In this document: positions 7,433-49,154 of the stretch, one piece after another | Layout: each line of letters begins with the position of its first letter | How positions within the stretch are numbered: the first letter of the stretch is position 1 | Assembly (NCBI RefSeq): GCF_044324785.1 | Contig: NZ_CP172127.1 | Direction: 5' to 3' (one strand) | DNA: 64,000 bases | From: Escherichia coli | GTDB taxonomy: Bacteria; Pseudomonadota; Gammaproteobacteria; Enterobacterales; Enterobacteriaceae | Position numbers and translations under genes: made by a program | The notes under the pieces: model-generated | What the model was told of the DNA's origin: nothing | The model's input: only the letters and a program-made list of their open reading frames with translations | Databases searched by the model: none

Positions 7433-8206
7433 CACGTTAAACAACGTATACGTGTTATTAAGCAACACTTCGGCAATTTCATCTGCGGGTTCCAGGCGTA
7501 ACTCACAAAGCACAGCAAACACCCGCGCGGCCTGTTCCGGGCGGTTAGGCTGCCCCTGAAAACCGTTGAGCGGCATATCCGGCGCGTCGGTTTCCAGCAA
7601 CAACGATGCCAGCGGTAATTTTGCGATGACATCGCGGGTTTTACTGGCGCGTGGATAGGTGATAGTACCGCCTACGCCGATTTTGTAGCCCAGCTGTACA
7701 AACCGCTCGGCCTGTTGGAGGCTGCCGGAAAAACCGTGAACCACGCCAGTGCGCGATAAATCGTGGCGTTTAAGATGCATCGCCAGTTTGTCGTGCGTGC
7801 GTCGTGAATGCAGGATCACCGGCAGATCGTAGCGTTTCGCCAGTTTCAGTTGTTCGTCGAGTAACCACTGCTGCCTCTCAAATTGCGGATCGTCGCCGAA
7901 GAGATCCAGACCGATCTCCCCCACCGCCACCACCTTCGCCGGACGCCTTTCCAGCGCCTGCTGTAGCTGATCAAGAGACACATCGCTATGTTTTTCCAAC
8001 ATACCAGGATGCAAGCCCAATGCGGCATACAGCGGTTGATATTTTTCCGCTAATGCCAACACACGGGCAAAATTTGCCGCCTCGGTTGCCGGAACAATGA
8101 TCTTGCCTACGCCCGCTTGTGCCGCGCGTTGCAGGCTGGCCTCTTCATCACCACTAAAAGGCGGGAAATCAAAATGGCAGTGGGTGTCGATAAAACGGCA
8201 AATCAA
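7427..8206 (-). CDS. yjjV: TatD-family metal-dependent DNase/hydrolase YjjV (259 aa)
   Basis: ORF MICRFIDTHCHFDFPPF... with the HxH start typical of the TatD family. Confidence 0.85.
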   Translation of the reverse strand: MICRFIDTHCHFDFPPFSGDEEASLQRAAQAGVGKIIVPATEAANFARVLALAEKYQPLYAALGLHPGMLEKHSDVSLDQLQQALERRPAKVVAVGEIGLDLFGDDPQFERQQWLLDEQLKLAKRYDLPVILHSRRTHDKLAMHLKRHDLSRTGVVHGFSGSLQQAERFVQLGYKIGVGGTITYPRASKTRDVIAKLPLASLLLETDAPDMPLNGFQGQPNRPEQAARVFAVLCELRLEPADEIAEVLLNNTYTLFNVP

Positions 8207-9276
8207 GCCAGATCCTCATTGTTAAATGTCGGGTCGTTCGCCTGCGGAGCGTCGATCACTTCGGCAACCAGCGTATCGTTGGCGACTGGCGCAGGCGGAA
8301 TAACGATCGACTCCGGCGTCACCACCGGCACCAGATGGCGGGTAAGCGGCGCTTTTTCAGTTAATAGCTTGCCAACCGTGGCGAGGAAATATCGCCCGCA
8401 TAAACGCCCAAGTTTATAGTCTTCACGCAGCGCCGGAATCCGACTGCCAAGCGCGATACTATGTAATGGCTTCGGTGGATAAATTTCGAATATTCGCAGC
8501 TTGCCCGGTGGTTTCTCAATAAATTGCTGGATGTCACGATAGCTGGTTTCATGATGCTGCACCAGATTGACCAGCGGCTGCAGGCTACTGTCACCCAGCC
8601 AGCGTTCCATGCGTTTGAACCACTGCGGCGTGTAGTACATTTGCGACGGCACGGTGCGAATGACGACCAACGTTTTTGCCCCTTGCCTTGCCGCCTCTTT
8701 AACCGGAATCGCATCACTGATCCCACCATCCAGGTAGTTAATGCCTTCCAGCGACACTCCGCTACGATAAAAGCCAGGTATCGCACTGGAGGCGCGAATC
8801 ACATCCAGCCAGTTTTGTTTGGTTGGTAAAAAGTAATTCGGCGCGTAGTCATCCTGACGACAGGCGCACATATAAAACGATTTGCCGCTGTCAAACAACC
8901 GCGCGGCGGTGTCCATTTGCAACGGCATCTGGCTTGCGGTGGCCTCCACCAGCCAGTCGAGATCGATAAGATTTCCTCCACGGACAAAGCGCAATGGATC
9001 GAAAAATTCGCGTTTTGTGGTATAGCGCATGATGACTTTGCGCGCGTAACCGGGCTGATTACAGATATACGCCGAGAGGTTCTGCGCCCCGGCAGATGTG
9101 CCGAGATAAAGATCGAAAGGATTAAACTGCGCGCGCATAAACTCATCCAGCACGCCTGCCGTGAAAATTCCACGCTGCCCGCCGCCTTCGCACACCAGAG
9201 CTATTCGTCCAGGCTGGAACGGCCTTAGCGACAACGGCGCAATATTACCAAGCGTTACAGGTATTCGCTGCCCCAC
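8203..9276 (-). CDS. yjjU: Patatin-like phospholipase YjjU
   Basis: ORF contains GGGQRGIFTAGVLDEF and GTSAGA (patatin G-x-S-x-G). ORF-track start 9312 is a TTG; I place the start about 12 codons downstream (uncertain). Confidence 0.75.
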   Translation of the reverse strand: MGQRIPVTLGNIAPLSLRPFQPGRIALVCEGGGQRGIFTAGVLDEFMRAQFNPFDLYLGTSAGAQNLSAYICNQPGYARKVIMRYTTKREFFDPLRFVRGGNLIDLDWLVEATASQMPLQMDTAARLFDSGKSFYMCACRQDDYAPNYFLPTKQNWLDVIRASSAIPGFYRSGVSLEGINYLDGGISDAIPVKEAARQGAKTLVVIRTVPSQMYYTPQWFKRMERWLGDSSLQPLVNLVQHHETSYRDIQQFIEKPPGKLRIFEIYPPKPLHSIALGSRIPALREDYKLGRLCGRYFLATVGKLLTEKAPLTRHLVPVVTPESIVIPPAPVANDTLVAEVIDAPQANDPTFNNEDLA

Positions 9277-33415: not shown

Positions 33416-33644
33416 GGTTTCTCTTTCCTGTGGACCGATGCAAGATTTTCGGCCTGGAAAGGAAAAACTTTATAGTCAACGTCATTATCACCGTCGAACA
33501 TAATTCGTTTTGTTTCATTTTTGTACAAAGCTAAGAGCGTCATGAATAAAAAAATTAATCTTGTTTATTTATTTCACGCTATTTATCGCAATTTTGCACA
33601 ATGATGCATCGTATGATGCGCGTTTTAAAGAAAGGATATCTGAT

Positions 33645-34187
33645 ATGTTAAACCGTGATTTTGATCATCTATCAACCCTGCTCCATCTTTTTTTTGAGCG
33701 TGACGATATTTGCCAAAAGCTTAATATTATTGATCAAAACGAGATCACCGGCTGGGAAGTTTGGTTCCAGGTGGAGTTTGCTAATATGCTTTGCTCAACA
33801 GACCATGAATGGTGGCGTGAACAAACACTATCCTGTGATATGCGCAAAAAGCCCGAGCGCCCCACCCTACGTACAGATTTTTTATTACGCAAAAAAGGCT
33901 GGGCACAAGATAGCTATATTGCGCTTGAAATTAAACAGAACAGAGATGCGACAAGTTGTGTTAAAAATATGATCGCAGACTTAGAGAAAAGCGCCAAAAT
34001 TAAACGTTCTGAGCTTGATTTGCGTAGTTTCTGGACTTTAGGTATTACTCCGATGATCGACAGAGAAAGACTGAACTCTCTCATCGACAGTTATTTAGAT
34101 GAGAAATTCTATCTTACTAAATCTCGTAAAAAACACGTTTTACTTAAAGAAATAAAAAATACACCATATTGCTATATTGTTATTTAA
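33645..34187 (+). CDS. Hypothetical protein, possible PD-(D/E)XK nuclease fold (180 aa)
   Basis: ORF in an AT-rich islet; start chosen at ATG 33645 with AAAGGA Shine-Dalgarno 9 nt upstream (track ORF begins 33561). Contains E...D-x14-E-x-K pattern (WEVWFQVEF ... RTDFLLRKKGWAQDSYIALEIK). No recognised K-12 counterpart. Confidence 0.5.
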   Translation: MLNRDFDHLSTLLHLFFERDDICQKLNIIDQNEITGWEVWFQVEFANMLCSTDHEWWREQTLSCDMRKKPERPTLRTDFLLRKKGWAQDSYIALEIKQNRDATSCVKNMIADLEKSAKIKRSELDLRSFWTLGITPMIDRERLNSLIDSYLDEKFYLTKSRKKHVLLKEIKNTPYCYIVI

Positions 34188-37861: not shown

Positions 37862-37892
37862 GGCCGCCATGTGGCGGCCTGAATTATTTTTT
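37862..37892 (+). terminator. Rho-independent terminator of yjiA
   Basis: ggccgcca-tg-tggcggcc hairpin followed by tgaattatttttt; its T-tract overlaps the stop codon of the convergent BrnA-like ORF. Confidence 0.8.
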
Positions 37893-38186
37893 GTTCTGAT
37901 CGCGCAGCATCGCTTCACGTAAAATTGCGTTCAGGCGAGTTTGATAGCCTTTACCTGGTCGCTTCAACCATTCCATCACATCAGCATCAATACGCACCGA
38001 AGCCTGAGTTTTCAATGGCCGATAAAACTTACCGCGTTCTGCGTTAGACCATTGCTCATCGCTGGAAGGTGGGATATCACTGTAATCAATCTCTTCGTCG
38101 GATTTATTCGCCAGAGCCTTCAGTTCGGCCTCATGCTGCACATCGAGTGTAGAGGAGGTCCCTCGTTTATGTTTAACCATGCTCAT
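37884..38186 (-). CDS. BrnA-like (DUF4415/CopG-type) putative antitoxin, about 100 aa
   Basis: C-terminal ...SVRIDADVMEWLKRPGKGYQTRLNAILREAM resembles the ribbon-helix-helix tail of BrnA-family antitoxins; start chosen at ATG 38186 with GAGAGGA Shine-Dalgarno (track ORF extends to a GTG at 38252). Confidence 0.6.
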   Translation of the reverse strand: MSMVKHKRGTSSTLDVQHEAELKALANKSDEEIDYSDIPPSSDEQWSNAERGKFYRPLKTQASVRIDADVMEWLKRPGKGYQTRLNAILREAMLRDQNKK

Positions 38187-38324
38187 AGCGATTCCTCTCT
38201 TTACGATCTGCTTTTCGTGCACTGATGATTCGAATGTTGGAAATAGCATCACGTTTTAGGAAAAGATAGGGAAGTTGATATGAAGGGGCTGGATGGCAGC
38301 ATTGGGACACCATCCAGCATTTAT

Positions 38325-39059
38325 TCAAACCTGATAGCAATCCACCAAAAATGCCATCATTTCACTGGCATCTTTGCTGTGATAAAAGCGCACCATTTTG
38401 CTGTTGAACTCCAGCGCACGAGCTGCGGGTACACTAATGGGATTGTAACCGTGGCGCATTAACCAGCCGTTCATCATATGGCGACTGGTACGCTTGTTGC
38501 CATCAAAGAAAAACTGAAAATAAGTACCAAATAAAAACATTGCCAGCGCCCCTTCGAATGGTGGCATCTCTTTTATTTGTGCCACACCTGCGGCGAATAT
38601 TCGATTCAGTTCAGGTGCACCTGCTTCAGTGGCTGGTGGAAAATGAGTGCCCAGTTCACCGAGATGAACGCGCGCATTGTAATGTAACTCTTCACCTTCG
38701 CCGCGAAAAACGCCCCACTCCAGCGCCTCATTACGCGCAATAATGCCGTTAAGTAACGTGAACGTTTTCTTATCAAGGTCAAAACGCCCGAATTGCACAA
38801 GTTCAATCAGTTTTTTTGCGCTATCTGCCAGGTTCAACACCTGCTCAGTATCACTGACCTTATGCCCGCCAACAGTGACGCCATCGAGCAACGTTTTAAC
38901 TTCAACAAAGGTATAGGGGTTATTTTCCAGTTGCGCGGCATCCCAGACAAACCCAGCCATATGCGTTTTGAAGGTAAATAAGGCTGCGCGCGTACCGACA
39001 ATTTGCATCGCCGGGATGGCATTTGCATTCCAGCTCAGGTCCAGTAGTTTGGTTGTCAT
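38325..39059 (-). CDS. Divergent Fic/Doc-family-like protein (244 aa), catalytic-motif His replaced by Gln
   Basis: Motif QFFFDGNKRTSR (aa 181-192; DNA 38484..38519) aligns with the Doc motif HIFNDANKRTA and the Fic core HPFx[DE]GNGRxxR; AAGGA Shine-Dalgarno 8 nt upstream of the ATG. Confidence 0.5.
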   Translation of the reverse strand: MTTKLLDLSWNANAIPAMQIVGTRAALFTFKTHMAGFVWDAAQLENNPYTFVEVKTLLDGVTVGGHKVSDTEQVLNLADSAKKLIELVQFGRFDLDKKTFTLLNGIIARNEALEWGVFRGEGEELHYNARVHLGELGTHFPPATEAGAPELNRIFAAGVAQIKEMPPFEGALAMFLFGTYFQFFFDGNKRTSRHMMNGWLMRHGYNPISVPAARALEFNSKMVRFYHSKDASEMMAFLVDCYQV

Positions 39060-39102: not shown

Positions 39103-41202
39103 TTAAACCATCGCGTTATCCATCTGCTTTTCAAATGCCTGACGAATTAATCCCATCACATAAGGAAGCTCAGAAAGATCGCTGAAACCTATTTCAACAT
39201 CGCCATTGCCCCAACGGCCTATATCTGTGACATCTTTAGCCATACATTTTGGGTCAACCAGTTCATGGAATGGCATATTTAGTGATAAACGTAAGCGGCT
39301 TTTTTGCGGCACCACATCAACAAAATTCGTCTCCGCTTTGAAGGCAACATAGAGCTTCAATATTTCTCGCGTAACCCCAGCGTCCAGCGTCATAACGGCA
39401 TCAGAAAGGCTGTCAAAAAGTACGCGGATGTGCGTACCTTCTTCAAGTTGCGGGAAATCAGCAAGGACATATCCCGTTCCTCGTTCAACGACAGTGCGAT
39501 AACGAGCCAACACGTCTTCCGAAAGTTTGGGGATCGCCCAGACGTCTATTGCCAGCTCGGACAGACGTTCCGCTCTCTTTTGTATCGCTGCACGATCCCA
39601 TATTTCACATTGCCCTAACCCCGTGTTCAGGCGTAATGGACTTTCCTTAAAGCCACCTTTTATATCTCGTTTCTTCGCAAATGGACGGTCGCTGTAGCTT
39701 GAGTTATAGCCAGTTAACGTTAAATTACCCAACGTATGGAGCCACTTTTTATGGATACGCTTCCATTCCGGACCAAGGTCATCGCGCCACTTCACCGATA
39801 AATTAGGGTTCTGCGGCATGATATGTTCAATCGTATAAGTGTCAACATAGACCCGTTCTTTACGATCGTGGTTTTCAAATCTGCGTAGCCAATAGCTGCG
39901 ATTACGGAAGTTGTAGAGATCGCGAGTTTTCAGTTCACGTTGAAATTCATCATCATCCGGGAAACGACGGTAGGAAGGCAGATCCAGCAAATGCGCCGCA
40001 ATGCTCTCCAGATAACGCTCTTTATCCAGCACTTTGTAAAACGTAGCGAAGGTTTTAGTAAATGAGTTGGTGGGAATTGCACAGACTGCGCGCCGGAAGA
40101 TATACGACTCAATTAAACGCGTGGCACCTAAAAAATCCACAGCAGAAAGGATCCCCTGTTTATAGTCGTGATAAAGCACCAACAGGAACGGCCATGCAGC
40201 ATCAACTTTCAGTTCCCGCAGATCCTGAAACGCCATCTTTAAGGTTTTATCCTTTTCGCTATCCAGCGCCATCGCACAAAAATAGTCAGCAAACGTACGA
40301 ATATCCGCAACCAGCGCCTCCATCCCGCTATCTATTACACCAGGTTTTCGCGCATAGCGTTTAAAGGCTTCATAGACATCACCAATTCGCGGAATCTCAC
40401 CTGTTTTTACCGTCAGGTAATTACGCATAAAACTGTCGAAATAGTCAGTGTATCCCTTCTGACCAAACGCCAGCTCCATGGGCCGCCAGTAATCGTCGTA
40501 CAGTTGGCTTTGATGTTCTGGCTCCAGCCCCATCAGAACATAGTTGCGTACTAGATCCGCCTGACTCAGCGCTTTTCCTGTTGAGTTCATGCTTTCAAAG
40601 ATTAGTTGCGGATTATCCTGACCGCGATTCAAGGCGACATCCACAATCAGCAGTTTGGAAAGTCCCTGACATAACGCGGTGAAATTGCCGTGGAGTTTGC
40701 CTATTTGCTCATGGAAAAACTCAAAATTCTCTTTCACGCGTAGAGAGCAATTTTCTGCCAGCGGTTTTTGTCTAATCAATGCCAGCAGGCTCTCTCTGTC
40801 CGTTTGCGTAAGCAGTAACTTAAATCCACGCTTGCCCGATTCATACGGATTGAGCAGATAATAGTTTCGTAATTTCATGGCGGAGAAACCATCCATCACC
40901 TCGTCATCGCCAAGGTGTCTGGACAACGCTTCCAGCAATAACATCGCCGTTGTCAGGCGTTGCTGACCGTCAATCATCAGTAAGGGAGAGATCCCCGAAA
41001 CCTGATATAGGCCCTGTTCGATATACACCACCGAGCCGATAAAATGCGCCGGGATATCATCACGCTGCCCGGCACGTATTACATCGTCCCAGAGCTGGCG
41101 GCACTGTTCCTCTGACCATGAATAAGTACGCTGATAAATGGGAATAACGAATTGCTGAGAGCGTTTTAGAAAATCGAGTAATCGGGCTTCGGTGGCTTTC
41201 AT
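39103..41202 (-). CDS. GmrSD/SspE-like type IV restriction protein (DUF262 N-terminal NTPase domain + DUF1524 HNH-like nuclease domain), 699 aa
   Basis: N-terminal FVIPIYQRTYSW and DGQQRLTT (DUF262/ParB-like signatures); C-terminal TYTIEHIMPQN...LHTLGNLTL (His-Me/HNH-like of DUF1524); AGGAG Shine-Dalgarno; additional C-terminal extension of about 130 aa. Confidence 0.75.
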   Translation of the reverse strand: MKATEARLLDFLKRSQQFVIPIYQRTYSWSEEQCRQLWDDVIRAGQRDDIPAHFIGSVVYIEQGLYQVSGISPLLMIDGQQRLTTAMLLLEALSRHLGDDEVMDGFSAMKLRNYYLLNPYESGKRGFKLLLTQTDRESLLALIRQKPLAENCSLRVKENFEFFHEQIGKLHGNFTALCQGLSKLLIVDVALNRGQDNPQLIFESMNSTGKALSQADLVRNYVLMGLEPEHQSQLYDDYWRPMELAFGQKGYTDYFDSFMRNYLTVKTGEIPRIGDVYEAFKRYARKPGVIDSGMEALVADIRTFADYFCAMALDSEKDKTLKMAFQDLRELKVDAAWPFLLVLYHDYKQGILSAVDFLGATRLIESYIFRRAVCAIPTNSFTKTFATFYKVLDKERYLESIAAHLLDLPSYRRFPDDDEFQRELKTRDLYNFRNRSYWLRRFENHDRKERVYVDTYTIEHIMPQNPNLSVKWRDDLGPEWKRIHKKWLHTLGNLTLTGYNSSYSDRPFAKKRDIKGGFKESPLRLNTGLGQCEIWDRAAIQKRAERLSELAIDVWAIPKLSEDVLARYRTVVERGTGYVLADFPQLEEGTHIRVLFDSLSDAVMTLDAGVTREILKLYVAFKAETNFVDVVPQKSRLRLSLNMPFHELVDPKCMAKDVTDIGRWGNGDVEIGFSDLSELPYVMGLIRQAFEKQMDNAMV

Positions 41203-41486
41203 GAATGACTCCTGTCAAATTGCACTGGCAAACGGCGTCATTATGCTGCGAATAAAAAATAAAAGTTAGCGTCTTTGTTTCTGCAAAAATACCATTCTAG
41301 GATAAATCAAAATATATTAAGAAACACCTCAACACGCATTCATTAGAACAATTAATATTTCCAATTCATATTTATAACGTATTGAAAATGATCGTGTTTT
41401 TGATCATCACAGCAATAGTTTGATATAACAAAGCATTCACTTCACATTGAATATCCCCCTCTTTTTCAGGGCAAGGAATGCTTTTT

Positions 41487-43832
41487 ATGTCATCAACTAA
41501 TTTCAGCCAGATTGCAGCCTTCCTGTGGTCTGTCGCCGACCTGTTACGCGGCGATTTTAAACAATCACAATATGGACGAATTATTCTTCCTTTTACCCTT
41601 TTGCGTCGTCTGGAATGCGTACTCGAAACAACGAAAGACGCGGTCATTACCGAGGCGCAAAAAGTAAAAGCCATGAAACTGCCGGAGGAAGCCCAGGAGA
41701 AAATGATCCTGCGGGCGACTAATGGCCTCACGTTCTTCAATGCCTCAGCGATGGATCTCAGCAAAATGGGGCAAAATGGCATACAGGACAACCTGGAAAA
41801 CTACATCCAGTCGTTCTCTTCGGATGCCCGCGAAATTTTCGAACACTTCAAGTTCAGCGAGTTTGTCGGACAGCTGGCGGATGCAAACTTACTGTTCAAA
41901 GTGGTGCAAATATTCGCTAAAGCAGATTTATACCCGGAGCACGTCACCAACCACGATATGGGGCTGGTATTTGAGGAGCTGATCCGACGTTTTGCCGAGA
42001 GTTCTAACGAAACCGCCGGGGAGCACTTTACCCCGCGTGATATCGTCAATCTGACCACCTCGCTGGTGTTTTTCGATGATGATGATGCACTCAATAAAGA
42101 CGGCATCATCCGCACCATTTACGACCCAACAGCAGGAACCGGCGGCTTTCTCTCTTCCGGCATGGAGTACGTCCACAAACAAAACCCCAATGCCGTGATG
42201 CGCGCGTTTGGTCAGGAGTTAAACCCGGAATCCTACGCCATCTGCAAAGCCGACATGCTGATTAAGGGCCAGGACGTCAGCCTTATCAAACTCGGCAACA
42301 CCCTTTCCAACGATCAACTCCCCGCAGAAAAATTCGATTACATGCTCTCTAACCCACCTTTCGGCGTGGACTGGAAAAAGATCGAATGCGACATCAACGA
42401 CGAGCACAAACTCCAAGGTGCTGATGGCCGCTTTGGCCCCGGCCTGCCCCGCGTCTCCGACGGTTCGTTGCTGTTTCTGCTGCACCTGATCAGCAAAATG
42501 CGCGATGCCAAAAGCGGTGGTGGGCGGATCGGCATCATTCTTAATGGCTCTCCGTTATTCACCGGCGGCGCGGGCAGCGGTGAAAGCGAGATCCGCCGCT
42601 ACATTCTGGAAGCGGATTTGCTGGAAGGCATTATCGCCCTGCCCACCGACATGTTTTACAACACCGGTATCGCTACCTATGTGTGGATTTTGTCGAATAA
42701 AAAAGCGCCTGAGCGCAAGGGCAAAGTCCAGCTTATCGACGCTAGCAACCTGTGCGGCAAGATGCGTAAATCGCTGGGGTCAAAACGCAATATTCTCGGG
42801 GAGGAGGATATTGGTTTAATCACCCGCACGTTTGGCGATTTCGAACCCGTTGCCACCACTACGCTTGCGGCGTTAGGCCTGGAGAAAGCACCCGAACAAA
42901 AATCCAGCCGGGGACGCCAGCCCGCAACAACCAAAACCGAGGCGGCAAAAACTTTTGCCAGCAAAGTCTTTCACAGCACCGAGTTTGGCTATCGTCGCAT
43001 CACCGTTGAGCGCCCGTTGCGCCTGTCGGCTCAGATAAGTGATGACGCCATTGCCACATTGCGCTTTGCGCCGAAGCCGTTTATCGCTCCGATGGCGCAA
43101 CTGTATGACGCCTTTGCTTTCCAGTGGCAGGACGGTCATTACGGCGACTTAACAGCGGTAGAAAGTGAAGCCCGCGCCATTCTTAAAGCCGATTTTAGCG
43201 AGCTGAAAGAGAAGCAAATTAAAGATCTGCTCAACAGCAAATTATGGCTGGCCCAGCGCGGGTTAATGGAAAAAGCGCGGCGTATTCAGGCGGCGATGGG
43301 TATGCAGGCGGGCGGCAAAGACACCGTTAGCAATGACTTTAATCAGTTCCAGTTGACGCTGAAAGAGGCGTTCAAAACCGCAGGCGTGAAGCTGGATGCG
43401 AAAGAGAACAAGCAGTTTATTGATGCCATTACCTGCAAAAACCCGGATGCCGAACCAGTTATCAGCAAGGTACTGAAAGAAGCAGCCCAACCGTTGTACG
43501 GCGCGTTTGAGTACCACGGAAAGGTTGTGGAGTTTGAGCCGGATGGCGACCTGCGTGATAACGAGAATGTGCCGTTAAATCCGGCGGTATCTACCAGCGA
43601 GTTGATCGAGGGTTACTTCAAAGCAGAAGTATTGCCGCACGTCGCGGATGCGTGGATTAACGCCGATAAGCGCGATGCGAAAGATGGGGATATCGGGATT
43701 GTGGGGTATGAAATTCCGTTTAATCGCCATTTTTATGTTTATCAACCGCCAAGGCCGCTGGAGGAGATTGATGCGGATCTGGATGCGGTAAGTGCTGAAA
43801 TTATGAAACTGTTGCAGGAGGTACATTCCTGA
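41487..43832 (+). CDS. hsdM: Type I restriction-modification N6-adenine DNA methyltransferase subunit HsdM (about 781 aa, with long C-terminal extension)
   Basis: SAM-binding motif [11 protein letters not shown] and catalytic motif IV NPPFG; start placed at second ATG (41487), which has AAGGA 9 nt upstream; stop overlaps hsdS start. Confidence 0.85.
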
Positions 43833-45115
43833 TGGCTACATACAAAAACTATCAACAAACCAATTTGTTAGGATTAGAAATACTTCCATCTCATTGGGAA
43901 GTAAAAAAAATTAAGCATCTATTTTCAATTGGTCGAGGTAGAGTCATATCTCAAGCGGAATTAGAAGATGAAGGTATGTATCCAGTATACTCATCGCAAA
44001 CACATAATGATGGATGCTTAGGTTATATTAATAGCTATGACTTCAATTGTGAGCAAATTACATGGACTACGGATGGTGCAAATGCTGGAACTGTTTTTCT
44101 TCGGAAAGGCAAATATAACTGCACAAATGTATGTGGAACATTACAACCAATAAATAAAGAAAACTTTTTACAATTTCATTTATATTGCTTGCAGTACATC
44201 AATCAATTTCATAAGCGCCCTGATACTAATGGGGCGAAGATAATGAATAATGAGATGGCCGAAGTATATATTCCACTACCTTCTAACCAAGAGCAATTAC
44301 GAATCACCACCTTCCTCGACCACGAAACCGCAAAAATCGATAACCTAATCGAGAAACAACAACAATTTATTGAACTATTGAAAGAAAAACGTCAGGCCGT
44401 GATTAGCCATGCGGTGACAAAAGGGCTAAATCCTGACGTGCCGATGAAAGATTCTGGAGTTGAGTGGTTGGGAGAAATGCCTGAACATTGGCATTTTACT
44501 CGAGCTAAATTTGTTTCAAACATATTTGTTCCGCAACGAAATAAGCCAGAGTTAAATGATGACATTGGTATTTTTTGGATAACAATGGAAAACATGAGTC
44601 AACCATATATAACATCTTCCTTTCAATATGTTTCTGACGTTGCAGCACTAAAATCAGGCTCAAAGATATTACCAAAAGGAGCCGTAATAGCCAGCTGCGT
44701 TGGTAATTTTGGAATTGCTGCAATCAATGAGGTCGATGTTATTATCAATCAACAATTGCAAGCATTTCAGACCTTAAGTATAAAGGCCGATTTTCTCATG
44801 GCTTTAGTTTCTATTTCTAAAAAGTATTTTGAAATCATTGGCACCGCTGCAACCCTTGCATATGTAAATAAAGAAGGTTTTGAAAATCTTCCTGTTGTTA
44901 TTCCATCGGAAAATGAACAAATTAATATTTGTAAATACATTAGAGATAAAAATAAAAAGTTTGAAATATTGATTGAGCGTTCCATGCACCAAATTGAGTT
45001 ACTCCAGGAACGCCGCACCGCCCTTATCTCCGCCGCCGTCACCGGCAAAATAGATCTCCGCAACTGGACCGCCCCCATCGCCAAAACGGAAGCACCCACG
45101 GAGGCCAGCGCATGA
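43832..45115 (+). CDS. hsdS: Type I restriction-modification specificity subunit HsdS (427 aa)
   Basis: Two AT-rich target-recognition domains separated by a conserved helical spacer (...LIEKQQQFIELLKEKRQAVISHAVTKGL...) and a matching C-terminal repeat (...ELLQERRTALISAAVTGKIDL...); translationally coupled to hsdM and hsdR. Confidence 0.85.
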   Translation: MATYKNYQQTNLLGLEILPSHWEVKKIKHLFSIGRGRVISQAELEDEGMYPVYSSQTHNDGCLGYINSYDFNCEQITWTTDGANAGTVFLRKGKYNCTNVCGTLQPINKENFLQFHLYCLQYINQFHKRPDTNGAKIMNNEMAEVYIPLPSNQEQLRITTFLDHETAKIDNLIEKQQQFIELLKEKRQAVISHAVTKGLNPDVPMKDSGVEWLGEMPEHWHFTRAKFVSNIFVPQRNKPELNDDIGIFWITMENMSQPYITSSFQYVSDVAALKSGSKILPKGAVIASCVGNFGIAAINEVDVIINQQLQAFQTLSIKADFLMALVSISKKYFEIIGTAATLAYVNKEGFENLPVVIPSENEQINICKYIRDKNKKFEILIERSMHQIELLQERRTALISAAVTGKIDLRNWTAPIAKTEAPTEASA

Positions 45116-48100
45116 ACAACGACATTACAAAAGAGCTCAACCTGCAAAACGACATCATCGCCCAGATGGTGGAAAAAGGCTGGATTGTCGGCAAAGGTGA
45201 CGGCTACGACCGGGAACGTGCGCTATACGCACAAGACGTTCTGCACTTTGTGCAAACCACCCAACCGCAAGAGTGGGAGAAATTCGCCCGCGTTTACCCC
45301 AACGACAACGAACGCCATTTCCTCGACGCGCTGGTTGCGCAGTTAAAAAAAGCCGACAGCAACGCCACCGACATCCAGTCGCGCACCTGGGGTACGCTCG
45401 GCGTACTTCGCCACGGACTGAAAATCCGCAATGCCCGTTTTTCGCTGTGTCAGTTTAAACCGGAACATAATCTCAACCCGGAAACGCTGGCGCGCTATCA
45501 GCAAAATATCTGCCGTATCGTGCCGGAACTGGTCTACAGCCCGTATGCCTCAAATAGCGTCTTTGCAGAAACGGGCGTGAAAGCCAAAAAATGGCGTATC
45601 GATCTGGTGCTGTTTATCAACGGCCTGCCGATTGCCACGCTGGAGCTGAAATCCGAATTTAAACAGGCGGTGCAGAACGCCATTGCCCAGTACAAAAAGA
45701 CCCGCCTGCCGAAGGATCCCGCGACCAATAAACCCGAACCGCTGCTGACCTTTAAGCGCGGCGCGCTGGTGCATTTTGCCGTCAGCCAGTATGACGTCTT
45801 TATGACCACCAAACTCGCGGGTGACAGCACCTTCTTCCTGCCGTTTAACAAAGGCACCAAAGACGGCGGCGCAGGCAACGAGATCCCCGAAGATACCCAC
45901 CGCTACGCCACAGATTATCTGTGGAATGAAGTGCTGCTGCCGGACAACTTATTAAAAATCCTCGCCAGTTTTGTCCATTTGCATATTGAAGAAAAAGAGG
46001 AGTGGAACGGGCTGAAAGCGAAGAAAGAGAGCCTGATTTTCCCGCGTTATCATCAGTGGGATGTGGTCAACAAACTGCTGGAGGCCGCGACGATTGAAGG
46101 AACCGGCCATAAATACCTGATCCAGCACAGCGCCGGTTCCGGTAAATCGAACTCCATTGCCTGGACCGCCCACCAGCTTTCTCGTCTGTACGACGTGAAC
46201 GGGGAAAAACAGTTCCACTCCATTATCGTGGTGACGGACCGCACGGTGCTGGACGACCAGCTTCAGGACACCATCTGGCAGTTCGAACATGCCGACGGCG
46301 TGGTCGGGCGCATCAATAACAGAGAGGGCGACGGCTCTAAATCGGAAAAGCTCGCCAACGCGCTGGAAAACTCGCAGCCGATAATCATCGTCACCATCCA
46401 GACATTCCCGTTCGTGCTGAAAGCCATCGAAAACAGCGTCAGCCTGAAGCAGCGTAAATACGCGGTGATTGCCGACGAAGCACACTCCTCGCAGAGCGGT
46501 TCTACCGCCCGTCAGCTTAAAGAAGTGCTGATGAGCGAAGAAATGGATGATGACTTGGTACTGTCGTCAGAAGATATCCTGGATGCGACCATTGCCGCCC
46601 GGAAAGGCAGCAGTAACCTGAACTACTACGCCTTTACCGCCACGCCAAAATCCAAAACCCTCGAACTTTTTGGTCGCCGTCCACGTCCCGATGAACCGGC
46701 GTCAAAAACCAATAAACCTGAGGCCTTCCACGTCTACTCCATGCGCCAGGCAATCGAAGAAGGCTTTATCCTCGATGTGCTGAAAAACTACACCAACTAC
46801 AAAGTGGCGTATCAGTTGCTGCAAAAGCTGGTAGACAAGGACCGCGAAGTCGACAGCAAGAAGGCAAAGATAAAGCTCAACCTGTGGGTGACACTGCACG
46901 ACCACAATATTTCGCAGAAGGTGAAGGTGATTGTGGAGCACTTCCGCAAACATGTGATGCATCTGCTTGGTGGCCAGGCCAAAGCGATGGTGGTCACCAG
47001 TTCGCGTAAAGCCGCCGTGCGCTATAAGCTGGCATTTGATAAATACATTAGCGAGAACAATTACCAGAAAATCAGCGCGATGGTGGCGTTTTCCGGGGAA
47101 GTTGAATTCCGGGAAGGCGACCATAACAGCCTGGCATTGTTAAACCAGAAATTTACTGAAATAAACATGAACCCCGGCCTAAAAGGGCGGGATATGCGCA
47201 AAGCCTTCGACAGCGATGATTATCAGGTCATGCTGGTTGCCAATAAATTCCAGACCGGTTTTGACCAGCCGAAGCTGTGCGCGATGTACGTGGATAAAGC
47301 CCTCGGCGGCGTCGAGTGCGTGCAGACGCTCTCCCGCCTGAACCGCACCTATCCGGGCAAAGCGGAATCAGGCACTTTTGTCCTCGATTTTTATAACGAT
47401 CCGGGCGAGATCCTCGGCGCATTCCAGCCCTATTTCCAGACGGCGGAACTGACCGATGTCAGCGATCCGCAGCAGGTATTCGATCTGTTTGAAAAACTGC
47501 GCGCCACGCAGATTTTTCAGTGGCATGAAGTCGAGCAGTTCTGCGAGGCGTACTTCATCAAAAATAAATCGAATGCGGCGATCAGTAATATCTGTAAACC
47601 GGCGGTCGAACGCTGGAAAAAGCGTTATCTGATGGCAATAGACGCCTATTTGACCGCCAAAGAGATGTTCGAGCGCACTAAAAAAACGGGCGATACGGTG
47701 TTAATAACCAATGCGGAAAACAGTTTTAAAGCCTGTAAGCAGGAGAAAGATCGTCTGGAGATTTTCAAGAAAGATCTCGGCAGCTTTGTTCGCTTTTATG
47801 AGTTTATGTCGCAAATCGTTGAGTACGATGACAAGGATCTGGAAAAGCTAAGCCTGTTTGCGCGCCATTTACGCCCACTGCTGCATGAGCAACGTCTGGA
47901 AGAGGATGAAATTGATCTCAGTAATGTGGAGATGAGTCACTATCGTTTATCGAAAATCCATGAGCAAGATTTACGCTTACAGGAAGAAACGTCTGACTAT
48001 ACGCTGGATGCAAGTAATGATATTGGTACGGCAAAAGCGAAAGATAAAAAAGAGGAGTTTTTATCGCAGGTGCTTTCTCGGATGAATGAATTATTCATTA

Positions 48101-48375
48101 GCGACCATTTGACCGACAAAGATATGATCAGCAATGCTTTTGCGGTGTATAACAAAATAACTGAAAATGAAAATGTTATGACACAAATTAAAAACAATCC
48201 GCCAGAACAAGCGATTCTTGGTGACTTCCTCCAGGCAGTTGATAATGCTGTAATGGACAGTAATGACGCTCGGCAAGAATTTATGTTGCAATATTTATCC
48301 GATCCAGCTCGGGCAAAGGGCTTTGCTTATCTGATGTTTGATATGCTAACGGGGAAAATTGCTTTGCCAACATAA
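45112..48375 (+). CDS. hsdR: Type I restriction endonuclease subunit HsdR (1087 aa)
   Basis: N-terminal PD-(D/E)XK-like nuclease region (IDLVLFINGLPIATLELK), SF2 helicase motif I SAGSGKSNSIAW and motif II VIADEAHSS (DEAH); ATGA overlap with hsdS. Confidence 0.85.
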   Translation: MNNDITKELNLQNDIIAQMVEKGWIVGKGDGYDRERALYAQDVLHFVQTTQPQEWEKFARVYPNDNERHFLDALVAQLKKADSNATDIQSRTWGTLGVLRHGLKIRNARFSLCQFKPEHNLNPETLARYQQNICRIVPELVYSPYASNSVFAETGVKAKKWRIDLVLFINGLPIATLELKSEFKQAVQNAIAQYKKTRLPKDPATNKPEPLLTFKRGALVHFAVSQYDVFMTTKLAGDSTFFLPFNKGTKDGGAGNEIPEDTHRYATDYLWNEVLLPDNLLKILASFVHLHIEEKEEWNGLKAKKESLIFPRYHQWDVVNKLLEAATIEGTGHKYLIQHSAGSGKSNSIAWTAHQLSRLYDVNGEKQFHSIIVVTDRTVLDDQLQDTIWQFEHADGVVGRINNREGDGSKSEKLANALENSQPIIIVTIQTFPFVLKAIENSVSLKQRKYAVIADEAHSSQSGSTARQLKEVLMSEEMDDDLVLSSEDILDATIAARKGSSNLNYYAFTATPKSKTLELFGRRPRPDEPASKTNKPEAFHVYSMRQAIEEGFILDVLKNYTNYKVAYQLLQKLVDKDREVDSKKAKIKLNLWVTLHDHNISQKVKVIVEHFRKHVMHLLGGQAKAMVVTSSRKAAVRYKLAFDKYISENNYQKISAMVAFSGEVEFREGDHNSLALLNQKFTEINMNPGLKGRDMRKAFDSDDYQVMLVANKFQTGFDQPKLCAMYVDKALGGVECVQTLSRLNRTYPGKAESGTFVLDFYNDPGEILGAFQPYFQTAELTDVSDPQQVFDLFEKLRATQIFQWHEVEQFCEAYFIKNKSNAAISNICKPAVERWKKRYLMAIDAYLTAKEMFERTKKTGDTVLITNAENSFKACKQEKDRLEIFKKDLGSFVRFYEFMSQIVEYDDKDLEKLSLFARHLRPLLHEQRLEEDEIDLSNVEMSHYRLSKIHEQDLRLQEETSDYTLDASNDIGTAKAKDKKEEFLSQVLSRMNELFISDHLTDKDMISNAFAVYNKITENENVMTQIKNNPPEQAILGDFLQAVDNAVMDSNDARQEFMLQYLSDPARAKGFAYLMFDMLTGKIALPT

Positions 48376-48440: not shown

Positions 48441-49154
48441 ATGCTGAAGATGATTAAAGATTTTAAATTCAAAAAATACATTAAAAAATTACGTGAAGAA
48501 GGTTTGTTATTTTATGTTTCTTTCGGGTTTATATTTACATTGTTAATGGAAGTTGATGATCGATTACCGTACTATCTTCAACAAGACTTCTTTTTTGATA
48601 CACTTATAGGATTTATGCCAATCAATATATTCTTTGTTTTGATTTGCACATATATATTTTTCAATGCCGTCCATGCGCTTATTTCACCCTATAAATTTCA
48701 AAGAATTGGTGAGAAATTCCTCTCTGAACTTGATAAAAGAACACAACAAATTGGCTTTATTATTTCATTCATATGTTTTGGCATGACTTTGTTTTGTGCA
48801 CTGGTGTGGTTGCTGTTTTTTGAGATGAATACTGAAAGTTACTACGCAAAATATACATTAATTTTTTTGGCTGTTTTTATCATTATGATTATGTTTTCTT
48901 CAGCAGTTAATCCAGTAATGAACAGAATATCACAAAAAATTAAGGAATCGGACTCACATGGAAATTCAAAAATAATTCTTATAATTATAATCATTACATT
49001 ATCGCTATTATTACCAATTGCGTGCATTATCAATAAAAATAAAACAATTGAAATCAATATCAAGAAAGAAACTTATCAGCAAATAAAAGAAAAAACAAAA
49101 ATGAAACCAGAGGATTATATCAAAAAATTGATTACTGATATTAAATTCAACTAA
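48441..49154 (+). CDS. Hypothetical multi-pass membrane protein (237 aa), strongly AT-rich
   Basis: ORF 66 bp downstream of hsdR on the same strand; several hydrophobic segments; Lys/Ile-rich composition, much lower GC than its neighbours. Confidence 0.55.
   Translation: MLKMIKDFKFKKYIKKLREEGLLFYVSFGFIFTLLMEVDDRLPYYLQQDFFFDTLIGFMPINIFFVLICTYIFFNAVHALISPYKFQRIGEKFLSELDKRTQQIGFIISFICFGMTLFCALVWLLFFEMNTESYYAKYTLIFLAVFIIMIMFSSAVNPVMNRISQKIKESDSHGNSKIILIIIIITLSLLLPIACIINKNKTIEINIKKETYQQIKEKTKMKPEDYIKKLITDIKFN

Follow-up and report, generated by a model that had tools for sequence, protein, structure and literature searches.

One major front in the arms race between bacteria and T-even-like phages is formed by the GmrSD enzymes. 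EcoCT596 GmrSD and Eco94GmrSD are single-chain type IV restriction enzymes that have glc-hmC as substrate and are subject to inhibition by IPI*. The characterised GmrSD enzymes function without a DUF5655 domain, and to our knowledge such a tail is absent from all the characterised members, i.e. GmrSD, BrxU, HEC-06, SspE, DndI and TgvAB. HEC-06, a GmrSD-like protein with experimentally validated antiphage activity, lost its defence when the equivalent Q, R and E, H were mutated, and it occurs embedded in Hma systems (Payne et al. 2024 preprint, 10.1101/2024.01.29.577857). TgvAB, from VPI-2 of Vibrio cholerae, includes a DUF262/DUF1524 nuclease located inside an hsd operon (PMC11411939). The window, which is the whole stretch of 64,000 nucleotides of Escherichia coli DNA analysed here, carries a gene in which this core is followed by DUF5655 (Table 1). 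A full-text literature search for DUF5655 found no reported activity, substrate or phenotype for members bearing it. What is this additional domain, and what may it do in a type IV nuclease?

Table 1. Features of the GmrSD-DUF5655 locus (positions in the window; aa, residues of the gene product)
Feature	Positions	Strand	Evidence or remark
BrnA antitoxin gene	37884-38252, or about 37887-38186	minus	Pfam; downstream of the GmrSD gene
brnT remnant, 24 codons	38176-38247	minus	tblastn
Fic-like gene	38325-39059	minus	Pfam; downstream of the GmrSD gene
GmrSD-family gene with C-terminal DUF5655, complete	39103-41202	minus	ORF list, translation, Pfam, PADLOC, RefSeq name of a copy
DUF5655, aa 593-692, YdhG/YjbR/CyaY-like alpha-beta4-loop-beta-alpha fold	39127-39426	minus	
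Variable connector from nuclease to tail, aa 557-590	39433-39534	minus	Lowest conservation in the protein; pLDDT <50 at residues 571-576
DUF1524 / GmrSD_C His-Me finger (HNH-type) nuclease domain, aa 414-549	39556-39963	minus	Pfam 1.1e-26
All-helical linker / middle domain, aa 228-410	39973-40521	minus	Full-length AF2 model, pLDDT mostly 85-96, helices only
DUF262 / GmrSD_N (ParB-like NTPase/sensor), aa 9-222	40537-41178	minus	Pfam 4.4e-33
AT-rich divergent intergenic region, GmrSD gene to hsdM	41203-41477	.	Includes the GmrSD ribosome-binding site, AGGAG
Type I R-M operon: hsdM 41478-43832, hsdS 43832-45115, hsdR 45112-48375	41478-48375	plus	ORFs, RefSeq annotation of the syntenic locus, context census

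The initial annotation had marked this span as a candidate GmrSD/SspE-like enzyme with an extra C-terminal domain. According to the ORF list it is indeed one single ORF on the minus strand, with the ATG at 41202 and the stop codon at 39103-39105, and the translated product has 699 aa. A copy of 98.7% identity is labelled 'GmrSD restriction endonuclease domain-containing protein' in RefSeq; NCBIfam assigned no family to this protein or to the Fic-like and BrnA proteins, and PHROGs gave unknown-function families only. The Shine-Dalgarno sequence lies 6 nt 5' of the ATG. A simple scan of the intergenic region found no sigma-70 consensus promoter, and the promoter/terminator scan gave fewer matches than were found in shuffled sequence, none of them interpretable. 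All the motifs quoted in the initial annotation were located in the translation, namely IPIYQRTYSW at aa 20-29, DGQQRLTT at aa 78-85, EHIMPQN at aa 459-465 and LGNLTL at aa 491-496, and its landmark for the tail, AIPKLSEDVLARYRTVVERG, was found at aa 556-575. In an alignment of 31 family sequences, the residues of the DUF262 motifs QR (Q24 R25), DGQQR (78-82) and FxxxN (F202..N206) are invariant, as is N493 of DUF1524, where E459, H460 and N500 are near-invariant. The AF2 model also has the beta-beta-alpha elements in its DUF1524 part. As read from the sequence, the catalytic motifs are all intact.

Sequence profiles and structure both uphold the assignment to the GmrSD family. Besides the Pfam matches, the best PADLOC core model is 'Orf5' (PDLC02693, 6e-214), which ends at residue 555, and the PADLOC HEC-06 model also matches residues 8-557 (9e-58). 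A literature search found no source system for the name 'Orf5'. The comparison with solved enzymes of the family that the initial annotation had suggested was carried out with the full-length AF2 model (pLDDT 88), which matched DndI, SspE and BrxU with probability 1.00 in Foldseek. Like the solved members, the model consists of two domains bridged by a large helical linker, and this middle domain aligns to those of the same three proteins. At 13-18% in the structural alignment, its identity to solved enzymes of the GmrSD family is low. The label SspE-like is right for the DUF262 part only. Among solved structures DndI (9jfl) is the nearest relative, SspE comes second and BrxU third.

Could the gene be a decaying relic that has no present function in this strain? 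Some E. coli genomes do have related alleles that are broken, either by a split into two CDSs or by IS4. But here the ORF has the full length that is the norm of the family, together with intact catalytic residues and a good ribosome-binding site, and the cluster of 99%-identical proteins has 595 member sequences. We find decay scarcely credible.

There is a further question of whether the tail is a domain of its own or a part of the nuclease domain. The domain search of the C-terminus proposed in the initial annotation was run, and the tail did not fall inside the canonical DUF1524. Pfam reports DUF5655 (PF18899, 1.5e-10, model positions 13-108 of 109) separately from GmrSD_C, and residues 590-690 match a separate PADLOC model, PDC-S18 (6e-23). 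The predicted extension is thus real, but its length is about 143 aa and not 130. DUF5655 is a separate domain: no core profile reaches beyond 549-556, the variable connector is modelled with low confidence, and the module occurs elsewhere. The all-pairs identity of the connector is 0.33, versus 0.51-0.58 in the rest of the protein; for DUF5655 it is 0.58, versus 0.55 for the catalytic domains. The tail is therefore conserved as strongly as the catalytic domains, and it is under selection. Conserved in it are the motif YxAxK..TNFVD, an invariant D650, a near-invariant P651, the loop G662-x-W-G-N-G-D, and Q688.

The tail is modelled at a pLDDT of 92.6 with a YdhG/YjbR/CyaY-like alpha-beta fold. 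The structure closest to it is that of a YdhG protein of frataxin type, and its identity to all neighbours is 7-15%. A further resemblance is to the 'double-wing' domain at the C-terminus of T4 MotA, which binds DNA, and the topology of the model, alpha / antiparallel beta-sheet / alpha, superposes on solved members of the YjbR/YdhG/CyaY-like double-wing superfamily. Sequence similarity to YjbR/MmcQ (DUF419), YdhG (DUF1801), CyaY/frataxin and T4 MotA is not detectable, and Pfam gives DUF5655 only. Within the DUF5655 sequences compared, the long conserved D-P...G-x-W-G-N-G-D loop appears to be a signature of the domain. DUF5655 also differs from the YjbR/YdhG/CyaY/MotA-like group in its overall acidic charge: the core is mildly acidic, with a pI of ~5.0 (family median 5.24, median net charge -3). 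It has conserved basic residues, K616, K622, R636, R638, K652, K656 and R663, and the conserved Lys/Arg are placed on the sheet and the loop. The conserved exposed polar residues are K616, K622, N626 and Q688.

DUF5655 is also found alone, as tandem repeats, and behind a putative PD-(D/E)xK nuclease in the PDC-S18 family; relatives of such odd architecture matched Pfam DUF5655 in 22/22 cases. PDC-S18 is a PADLOC phage-defence candidate of about 305 aa. Profile positions 200-301 of 302 correspond to the C-terminal DUF5655 that it shares with this protein, and the N-terminal half holds another domain, the putative nuclease with a D..EYK motif, for which Pfam gives weak matches to HSDR_N_2 (0.018) and NucS_C (0.45). 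Unlike GmrSD-DUF5655, PDC-S18 is mostly stand-alone in the sampled contexts, and linkage to R-M was absent in 3/3 of them; DUF5655 itself as a marker of R-M embedding was dropped for this reason. Apparent fusions of DUF5655 to HsdS, HsdM, the HsdR C-terminus and radical-SAM were rejected as well, because they either retained GmrSD_C sequence or looked like junctions with genes nearby. These cases (P0297, P0307, P0358, P0354 and P0265) are regarded as deletion derivatives or assembly chimeras. Nearly all matches to the tail alone were short fragments; these were taken as partial genes or tool bias and not as stand-alone proteins. In the phage database the tail occurs in just 3 of the 50,697 records, so that DUF5655 is not a phage-borne domain.

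One explanation for the tail is that it is a structural module with no ligand of its own, which would steady the active dimer or cap the nuclease until an NTP-driven rearrangement. According to the BrxU and SspE structures, GmrSD relatives act as intertwined dimers. The tandem repeats, found in P0243, P0248, P0299 and P0340, where the GmrSD dimer scaffold is absent, suggest that the unit works as a pair; of these, P0299 and P0340 lie on contigs too short to show much of their surroundings. The flexible tether, and the negative charge of DUF5655 next to a basic DUF1524 (pI 5.0 vs 9.4), would suit either a brace or a cap. But the conserved surface loop (D650-P651, G-x-W-G-N-G-D), together with the conserved exposed polar residues, looks like a site for a ligand or partner rather than simple packing. 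A purely structural role is possible, if unlikely.

How is this architecture distributed, and does the gene keep constant company? The related loci were searched with a subset of 15 sequences of the alignment. At least 553 species-representative genomes encode the DUF5655-bearing form of GmrSD, plasmids carry it too, and across many phyla this three-domain form keeps an identity of 58-86%. A member is present in about 26% of complete E. coli genomes and this allele in 2%. Among the best loci of species-representative genomes, DUF5655 forms the C-terminal end of a GmrSD in 80/80. Context was counted in the 40 loci having at least 4 kb of flank on both sides. Genes of hsd type are present in 29 of them, a same-strand hsd gene lies within 300 bp in 21, and the other class is stand-alone, with no type I genes within 10 kb (11/40). 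The gene occupies four different positions in hsd operons, and its called overlaps with operon neighbours range from 4 nt to 14 nt. In this window it is not embedded in the operon and adjoins hsdM divergently, as the initial annotation had observed. The three-domain form thus has a wide bacterial distribution, as a rule within or next to a type I R-M operon, which is the partner conserved across phyla. Note that between loci the GmrSD proteins are 68-76% identical, while their HsdM/HsdR are just 21-41% identical. This difference indicates that the gene is an independent cassette. As far as sequences can tell, the stand-alone loci and the divergent Hsd partners argue against an obligate dependence on the host R-M complex.

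Might DUF5655 then be a module for protein-protein interaction, or a guard, which docks the nuclease on the type I complex or senses the inhibition of that complex by phage anti-restriction proteins and so licenses the nuclease? There is a precedent in PrrC, which resides in EcoprrI and which the T4 Stp peptide sets free. But a co-evolved interface is hard to reconcile with a cassette that keeps its identity across operons with such different Hsd proteins, takes four positions in them and also stands alone. The same domain behind an unrelated putative nuclease in PDC-S18, away from R-M in the sampled contexts, speaks against docking too, and sensors in an arms race usually diversify, whereas DUF5655 is the most conserved part of the protein. 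A guard of this kind is distinctly unlikely. We also give little credence to DUF5655 as a new kind of licensing sensor through which the type IV nuclease would be coupled to the resident type I R-M system, either to its state or to its epigenetic mark. Its inputs might be m6A-methylated DNA, translocation-stalled DNA, or an Hsd complex blocked by phage anti-restriction proteins. If it were true, an hsd operon with an embedded GmrSD-DUF5655 would be one integrated two-tier immune machine, and not two co-located systems.

Another scenario concerns the substrate. The enzyme may read a host-made mark, either m6A from the neighbouring HsdMS or phosphorothioate, for self-discrimination or activation, and not phage hypermodification. 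Its closest solved relatives, DndI and SspE, are PT-sensing, and in many phyla the gene is tightly co-transcribed with a methyltransferase. But no dnd/ssp genes are present within 9 kb on each side of the syntenic RefSeq locus, and none was seen in 7 distant contexts (Pfam-annotated gene calls); besides, the protein shares just 18% identity with DndI. The cassette passes between type I systems whose HsdS specificities are unrelated, it is also found by itself, and the tested embedded relatives, BrxU and TgvAB, target cytosine modifications of phages. A host-made mark as the signal is very improbable. BREX genes were not found adjacent to the gene either, in the syntenic RefSeq locus or in the distant contexts.

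Do the downstream genes belong to the system? The initial annotation had placed the gene at the head of a same-strand block with Fic-like and BrnA-like genes. The shared strand and the order are right, but the locus census showed that the block is not a conserved unit, and Fic beside GmrSD-DUF5655 was seen there only in E. coli and Pseudocitrobacter. The block is a local enterobacterial arrangement. BrnA is an orphan antitoxin beside the brnT remnant. Outside enterics the GmrSD gene does not keep Fic and BrnA as neighbours, so they are probably not parts of the system.

The explanation we favour, with moderate confidence, is that the protein is a modification-dependent type IV nuclease which complements the adjacent type I R-M system, and that DUF5655 is an accessory module for nucleic-acid binding, target recognition or regulation, the whole being a mobile cassette. 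From the observed domain architecture, intact motifs, fold, conservation, distribution and genomic association, we infer a nuclease activity, its dependence on modification and a role for DUF5655. By analogy with the relatives, DUF262, as a ParB-like NTPase, would be the sensor of DNA or its modification and the nucleotide-driven switch, the middle domain of helices would relay the signal and mediate dimer formation, and the His-Me finger of DUF1524 would cleave invading DNA. DUF5655, on its variable connector of 35 residues, may bind nucleic acid or recognise the target as an accessory, possibly paired in the enzyme dimer, and help to position or license the nuclease. The gene behaves as a self-contained, horizontally mobile cassette inserting preferentially in or beside type I R-M operons. 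There it most plausibly supplies a complementary arm of defence, directed at phage DNA whose modification lets it evade the type I enzyme; BrxU plays such a part for BREX, and TgvAB for a Vibrio type I system. Because the specificity of the GmrSD family spans from glc-hmC to phosphorothioate, the term modification-dependent is not narrowed by the sequence.

Some observations count against this explanation. One is that an acidic DUF5655 is unlike a generic DNA binder, a point that the conserved Lys/Arg qualify. Another is that the best structural neighbour, of the frataxin-type, is not a proven DNA binder. A third is that about a quarter of the well-flanked loci are without type I genes, and a fourth that the characterised GmrSD enzymes do without this tail.

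Why does the tail matter? Once the role of this YjbR-like module in a type IV nuclease is known, Pfam DUF5655 would be assigned a function, be it in setting the range of substrates, in self-control or in cross-talk with the type I system. The reason why type I operons frequently host a second nuclease would become clearer too. What is more, GmrSD-DUF5655 could explain differences in susceptibility to phages and plasmids among E. coli lineages at the immigration-control locus.

Compared with the known systems, the core is familiar and the tail sets the protein apart. EcoCT596 GmrSD and Eco94GmrSD have the same order of DUF262, helical linker and DUF1524, the same QR, DGQQR and FxxxN motifs and the same H...N...N of the His-Me finger, and like this comparison set the present gene is chromosomal, in an E. 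coli defence locus; they have no DUF5655 tail. HEC-06 is the best experimentally validated relative by profile, with the EH nuclease and DGQQR motifs common to both. Like the GmrSD-DUF5655 family it is embedded in a larger modification-based system, but its host is Hma instead of type I R-M, and its profile of 562 positions stops where the DUF5655 connector starts. BrxU (7P9K), likewise a nuclease of the GmrSD family, sits inside a methylation-based defence operon and adds complementary protection from modified phages. Its structural match is 3e-5 and weak overall (TMq 0.28), it is without DUF5655, and its nucleotide motif RLFDS is a string absent from the DUF262 of this protein. The closest solved structures are DndI (9JFL) and SspE (6JIV, 7DRR), with Foldseek values of 6e-16 and 4e-14 and, for DndI, a phmmer match of 9e-12. 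They are 15-18% identical to this protein (DndI 18%), lack DUF5655, and are phosphorothioate-sensing DUF262-DUF1524 nucleases that work with dnd/ssp PT-modification genes, which are absent here. TgvAB and RloF of C. jejuni are GmrSD-like genes embedded in type I R-M and follow the same genomic logic as the GmrSD-DUF5655 family. However, TgvAB, for which no DUF5655 is described, needs two proteins, one with DUF262 only and one with DUF262-DUF1524, while GmrSD-DUF5655 is a single chain, and its family is far more conserved across phyla.

The GmrSD-DUF5655 gene is a single ORF of 699 codons on the minus strand, with its ATG at 41202 and its stop codon at 39103-39105 according to the ORF list and the translation, and a ribosome-binding site AGGAG lies 6 nt 5' of the ATG. 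Is it a genuine member of the GmrSD family? The motifs quoted in the initial annotation, which had called it a GmrSD/SspE-like candidate, were all located in the ORF. Pfam assigns GmrSD_N and GmrSD_C, and the strongest PADLOC core model, 'Orf5' (PDLC02693), covers residues 10-555 with its entire 543-position profile used (E = 6e-214). In a 31-sequence family alignment Q24, R25, D78-G79-Q80-Q81-R82, F202, N206 and N493 are invariant, and E459, H460 and N500 are near-invariant. They belong to the QR, DGQQR, FxxxN and His-Me-finger motifs, and mutation of their equivalents abolishes defence in TgvB (TgvAB: PMC11411939) and in HEC-06 and BrxU (10.1101/2024.01.29.577857). The GmrSD core is thus intact, with every catalytic residue kept. 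The full-length AlphaFold model (pLDDT 88, pTM 0.71) also matches the solved structures of DndI, SspE and BrxU, and on all this evidence the protein almost certainly belongs to the GmrSD family, as had been proposed. The label 'SspE-like' holds only loosely: the sequence match to SspE is confined to the DUF262 N-terminus, while DndI is the closer match and also the best PDB match by sequence (9e-12). The syntenic annotated RefSeq locus shows no dnd, ssp or BREX genes near this gene.

Features of the GmrSD-DUF5655 protein, its structural matches, and neighbouring ORFs in the window and in loci retrieved from other genomes (L-numbers, own coordinates)
Feature	Context or entry	Position	E or other value
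IPIYQRTYSW	protein	aa 20-29	
DGQQRLTT	protein	aa 78-85	
EHIMPQN	protein	aa 459-465	
LGNLTL	protein	aa 491-496	
AIPKLSEDVL... (start of 'extra' segment)	protein	aa 556	
GmrSD_N/DUF262	Pfam	aa 9-222	E = 4e-33
GmrSD_C/DUF1524	Pfam	aa 414-549	E = 1e-26
DUF5655	Pfam	aa 593-692	E = 1.5e-10
DndI	full-length model, 9jfl		E = 6e-16
SspE	full-length model		E = 4e-14
BrxU	full-length model, 7p9k		E = 3e-5
Helix	tail model	aa 591-604	
Four beta-strands	tail model	aa 611-641	
Long conserved loop	tail model	between fourth and fifth strands	
Fifth strand	tail model	aa 669-673	
Long C-terminal helix	tail model	aa 676-698	
YdhG-like protein	tail neighbour, 9t2w		10.1
DR2400/DUF419	tail neighbour, 2a1v		8.9
E. 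coli YjbR	tail neighbour, 2fki		8.9
T4 MotA C-terminal 'double-wing' domain, DNA-bound	tail neighbour, 5jlt		7.0
Frataxins (CyaY)	tail neighbours, several		6.0-6.5
Type III secretion chaperones	tail neighbours, several		about 5
208-aa ORF, TTG start	window, plus	33561-34187	
brnT remnant, 24 codons	window, minus	38176-38247	
Fic-like gene	window, minus	38325-39059	
hsdS	window	43832-45115	
237-aa membrane ORF	window, plus	48441-49154	
DUF262 + GmrSD CDSs	L097	8997-11089	
Second pair	L097	737-2388	
DarT-Macro pair + IS	L003	13711-15004	
Second DUF262 ORF	L037	18262-20391	
Second DUF262 ORF	L044	18073-20160	
hsdR remnant	L022, L024, L027	about 7943-8299	
WYL regulator	L006	1-346	
PDDEXK_4 gene	L006	10093-10863	

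The extra C-terminal domain of the initial annotation was confirmed by a domain search, although the extension measures about 143 residues, against the roughly 130 claimed. Pfam places DUF5655 apart from DUF1524, which ends at aa 549, and residues 590-690 match the C-terminus of another candidate-defence family of PADLOC, PDC-S18 (E = 6e-23). Since the core profile stops at 555 and the tail matches PDC-S18, the tail is ruled out as part of the canonical DUF1524 domain, and the extension is a genuine module in its own right. Modelled on its own from a 58-sequence alignment, the tail adopts a confidently predicted structure (pLDDT 92.6). Its predicted likeness to YjbR, YdhG, MotA and CyaY is structural only, and Pfam detects no sequence relationship to the YjbR/YdhG/MotA/frataxin families. 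YjbR/MmcQ domains are regarded as double-wing DNA binders, and nuclease-YjbR-EVE fusions have been noted (PMC7641849).

This extra YjbR-like domain folds independently and is strongly conserved. The all-pairs identity is 0.58 for DUF5655, 0.55 for DUF262, 0.55 for DUF1524 and 0.51 for the linker, so that its conservation equals that of the catalytic domains; the connector (aa 557-590) varies (0.33), and part of it has low model confidence. Conserved tail positions are K616, Y618, A620, K622, N626-F627, D629, L637, N642, D657, L685 and Q688, together with the invariant D650, the near-invariant P651 and the loop G662-x-W664-G665-N-G667-D. The domain is mildly acidic (pI 5.0 here, family median 5.24), which tempers a simple DNA-binding reading, and such a role is tentatively put forward here.

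Where else does DUF5655 occur? A search of 1.84 billion cluster representatives gave 1,328 relatives of the tail at E <= 1e-3. Among the best 150 of these, every long member is a GmrSD fusion of about 690-710 aa, and pieces of GmrSD-DUF5655 genes account for many of the short ones. Neighbours of the tail model in AFDB50 are likewise mostly DUF262/DUF1524 proteins of ~700 aa, from sources including Helicobacter, Proteus, Moraxella, Eubacterium and Methanobrevibacter. The PDC-S18 family (~305 aa, more than 5,000 clusters at 90% identity) carries DUF5655 C-terminal to another domain, which is probably a PD-(D/E)xK nuclease, given its D..EYK motif and weak Pfam matches to HSDR_N_2 (0.018) and NucS_C (0.45). 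Two or three DUF5655 units stand in tandem in the relatives P0243, P0248, P0299 and P0340, the last being a PDC-S18-type protein with three copies. Apparent fusions to HsdS, HsdM, HsdR and radical-SAM were discounted, as they resemble deletion derivatives or neighbour-gene chimeras; in the metagenomic ORFs P0297, P0307, P0358 and P0354, HsdS, HsdM or HsdR-C is fused straight to the GmrSD_C end plus DUF5655, and these would have arisen either by deletion within embedded loci or through chimeric assembly. From the fold, the nuclease-only partners, the conservation and the tandem repeats, DUF5655 may be an accessory nucleic-acid-binding or licensing module. One alternative is that the tail is purely structural, serving dimerisation or autoinhibition; another is that, like SspE and DndI, it senses a host mark.

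The three-domain form is widespread. Each of the 120 best full-length homologues (67-99% identity), found in Gammaproteobacteria, Kiritimatiella, Chloroflexota, Desulfobulbus, Binatia and others, has the complete set of three Pfam domains. With one genome per GTDB species, at least 553 species genomes encode the tail. The best 80 of these loci span Planctomycetota, Cyanobacteria, Actinomycetota, Acidobacteriota, Verrucomicrobiota, Saccharibacteria and a Methanosaeta archaeon, and in all 80 the tail forms the C-terminal end of a GmrSD ORF. Plasmids of Nostoc, Planktothrix, Sulfitobacter, Picosynechococcus and others carry copies, and the tail is nearly missing from phage genomes (3 of 50,697 records). 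In E. coli, the 3.7-kb block is present in 114 of 5,426 complete genomes, another allele of ~72% nucleotide identity in a further ~1,370, and at least 80% of the gene in 1,401 (26%). Syntenic copies are named 'GmrSD restriction endonuclease domain-containing protein' in RefSeq. Some copies are interrupted or split: strain N3 (NZ_CP031609.1) has a copy 99.9% identical to the window gene that is interrupted by IS4, and in strain MA11 (L097, NZ_CP040314.1) the ~72% allele at the yjiA-yjiR locus is annotated as two CDSs, one for DUF262 (293 aa) and one for GmrSD (387 aa). Beside yjiA there lies a second pair, in which a DUF262 fragment is joined by an 'HNH endonuclease family protein'; the pairs suggest decay or a genuine split form.

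Is the gene bound to type I systems? Among 40 loci flanked by 4 kb or more on either side, hsdM, hsdS or hsdR is present in 29 (72%), a same-strand hsd gene lies within 300 bp in 21 (52%), and about a quarter, e.g. in Desulfobulbus and Nitrincola, have no hsd gene within 10 kb. The gene [G] recurs at four insertion points, hsdM-[G]-hsdS-hsdR, hsdM-hsdS-[G]-hsdR, hsdM-hsdS-x-hsdR-[G] and [G]-hsdM-hsdS-hsdR. In Kiritimatiella, Litorilinea and Oceanimonas the called genes overlap their neighbours by 4-14 nt, and in enterics (the window; Citrobacter) the gene adjoins the operon, divergent or convergent. It prefers type I operons and behaves as a mobile cassette: the proteins of five type I loci share 68-76% mutual identity, whereas the flanking HsdM/HsdR are only 21-41% identical, the E. 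coli/Citrobacter pair excepted. This indicates that the gene moves independently of the R-M lineage, as a horizontally mobile cassette with a strong type I operon preference, and is not a co-evolving subunit of one lineage. A further alternative for the tail is a PrrC-like guard or docking function towards the type I complex. The stand-alone loci weaken this explanation, as does the promiscuity of the cassette, which associates with unrelated Hsd families.

Several loci carry further genes. In Litorilinea (L003) a DarT-Macro (DarTG-like) pair and an IS (rve) lie between genes of the cassette-hosting operon, so that one hsd operon holds several embedded cargoes. A distant second DUF262 ORF (27% identical to aa 5-248) stands 3' of [GmrSD]-hsdM-hsdS in L037 and L044. 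Directly 5' of the gene in L022, L024 and L027 is an hsdR remnant, its last ~120 codons; in these loci the type I system was deleted and the cassette retained. Oceanimonas (L006) has a BrxR-type WYL regulator 5' of the cassette-bearing operon and a PDDEXK_4 gene overlapping the 3' end of the cassette gene.

The window covers the E. coli region tsr-btsT-yjiX-yjiA ... yjiS-yjiR, which we take to be the 'immigration control' locus that in K-12 carries mrr-hsdRMS-mcrBC. The order is yjiA, BrnA, Fic-like and GmrSD-DUF5655 (the last three on the minus strand), the divergent hsdM-hsdS-hsdR, a low-GC membrane ORF and yjiR. The divergence from hsdM and the same-strand block with Fic-like and BrnA genes are therefore as first described, but the block is not a conserved functional unit: in the locus census, Fic stands beside the gene only in E. 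coli and one Pseudocitrobacter MAG. A brnT remnant just 5' of brnA is 87.5% identical to the C-terminus of Citrobacter BrnT, while in Citrobacter and E. albertii the homologous type I system still has a complete brnT-brnA pair next to it; thus BrnA here is an orphan antitoxin left by rearrangement. The Fic-like protein has a marginal Pfam Fic match (E 9e-4, aa 146-197), a strong PHROG 11900 match (4e-42) and a weak match to the PADLOC model PDC-S24. Its motif, QFFFDGNKRTSR, has a Doc-like NKR and Gln or Phe at the catalytic His position; by our reading it would lack that His, and the protein may be a Fic that is divergent or has no catalytic activity. GC falls to 35% in hsdS (44000-44999), whereas most of hsdM and hsdR is at ~54%; such a dip is typical when a specificity subunit has been swapped. 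Immediately 3' of hsdR, the multi-pass membrane ORF (GC ~33%), which the syntenic RefSeq locus lists as a 'hypothetical protein', matches no family significantly and could be a further island cargo gene. The 208-aa ORF between tsr and btsT lies in a low-GC stretch (43%).

How would the protein act? By homology to BrxU, HEC-06, GmrSD and TgvAB, it would be an NTP-regulated, probably dimeric, modification-dependent His-Me nuclease, and its target would be phage DNA whose modifications evade the neighbouring type I enzyme. That it is an active defence nuclease seems very likely; modification dependence is somewhat favoured.

GmrSD-like genes embedded in type I loci were already documented by Machnicka 2015, as cited in PMC11411939, and further cases are RloF, TgvAB and those of Payne 2024 (PMC11411939; 10.1101/2024.01.29.577857). 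The extra domains of GmrSD homologues listed by Machnicka et al. are DUF4268, DUF4357 and DNA_binding_1, a list without DUF5655. In the searchable literature we found no description of the DUF5655 fold assignment, its predominant GmrSD pairing, the exceptional degree to which the three-domain form is conserved across phyla or the four-way insertion of the cassette into unrelated type I operons. DUF5655 itself is already a Pfam entry, and the architecture is annotated in RefSeq and UniProt. As a restriction gene GmrSD-DUF5655 is ordinary, yet it offers a clean and abundant handle on the DUF5655 domain.
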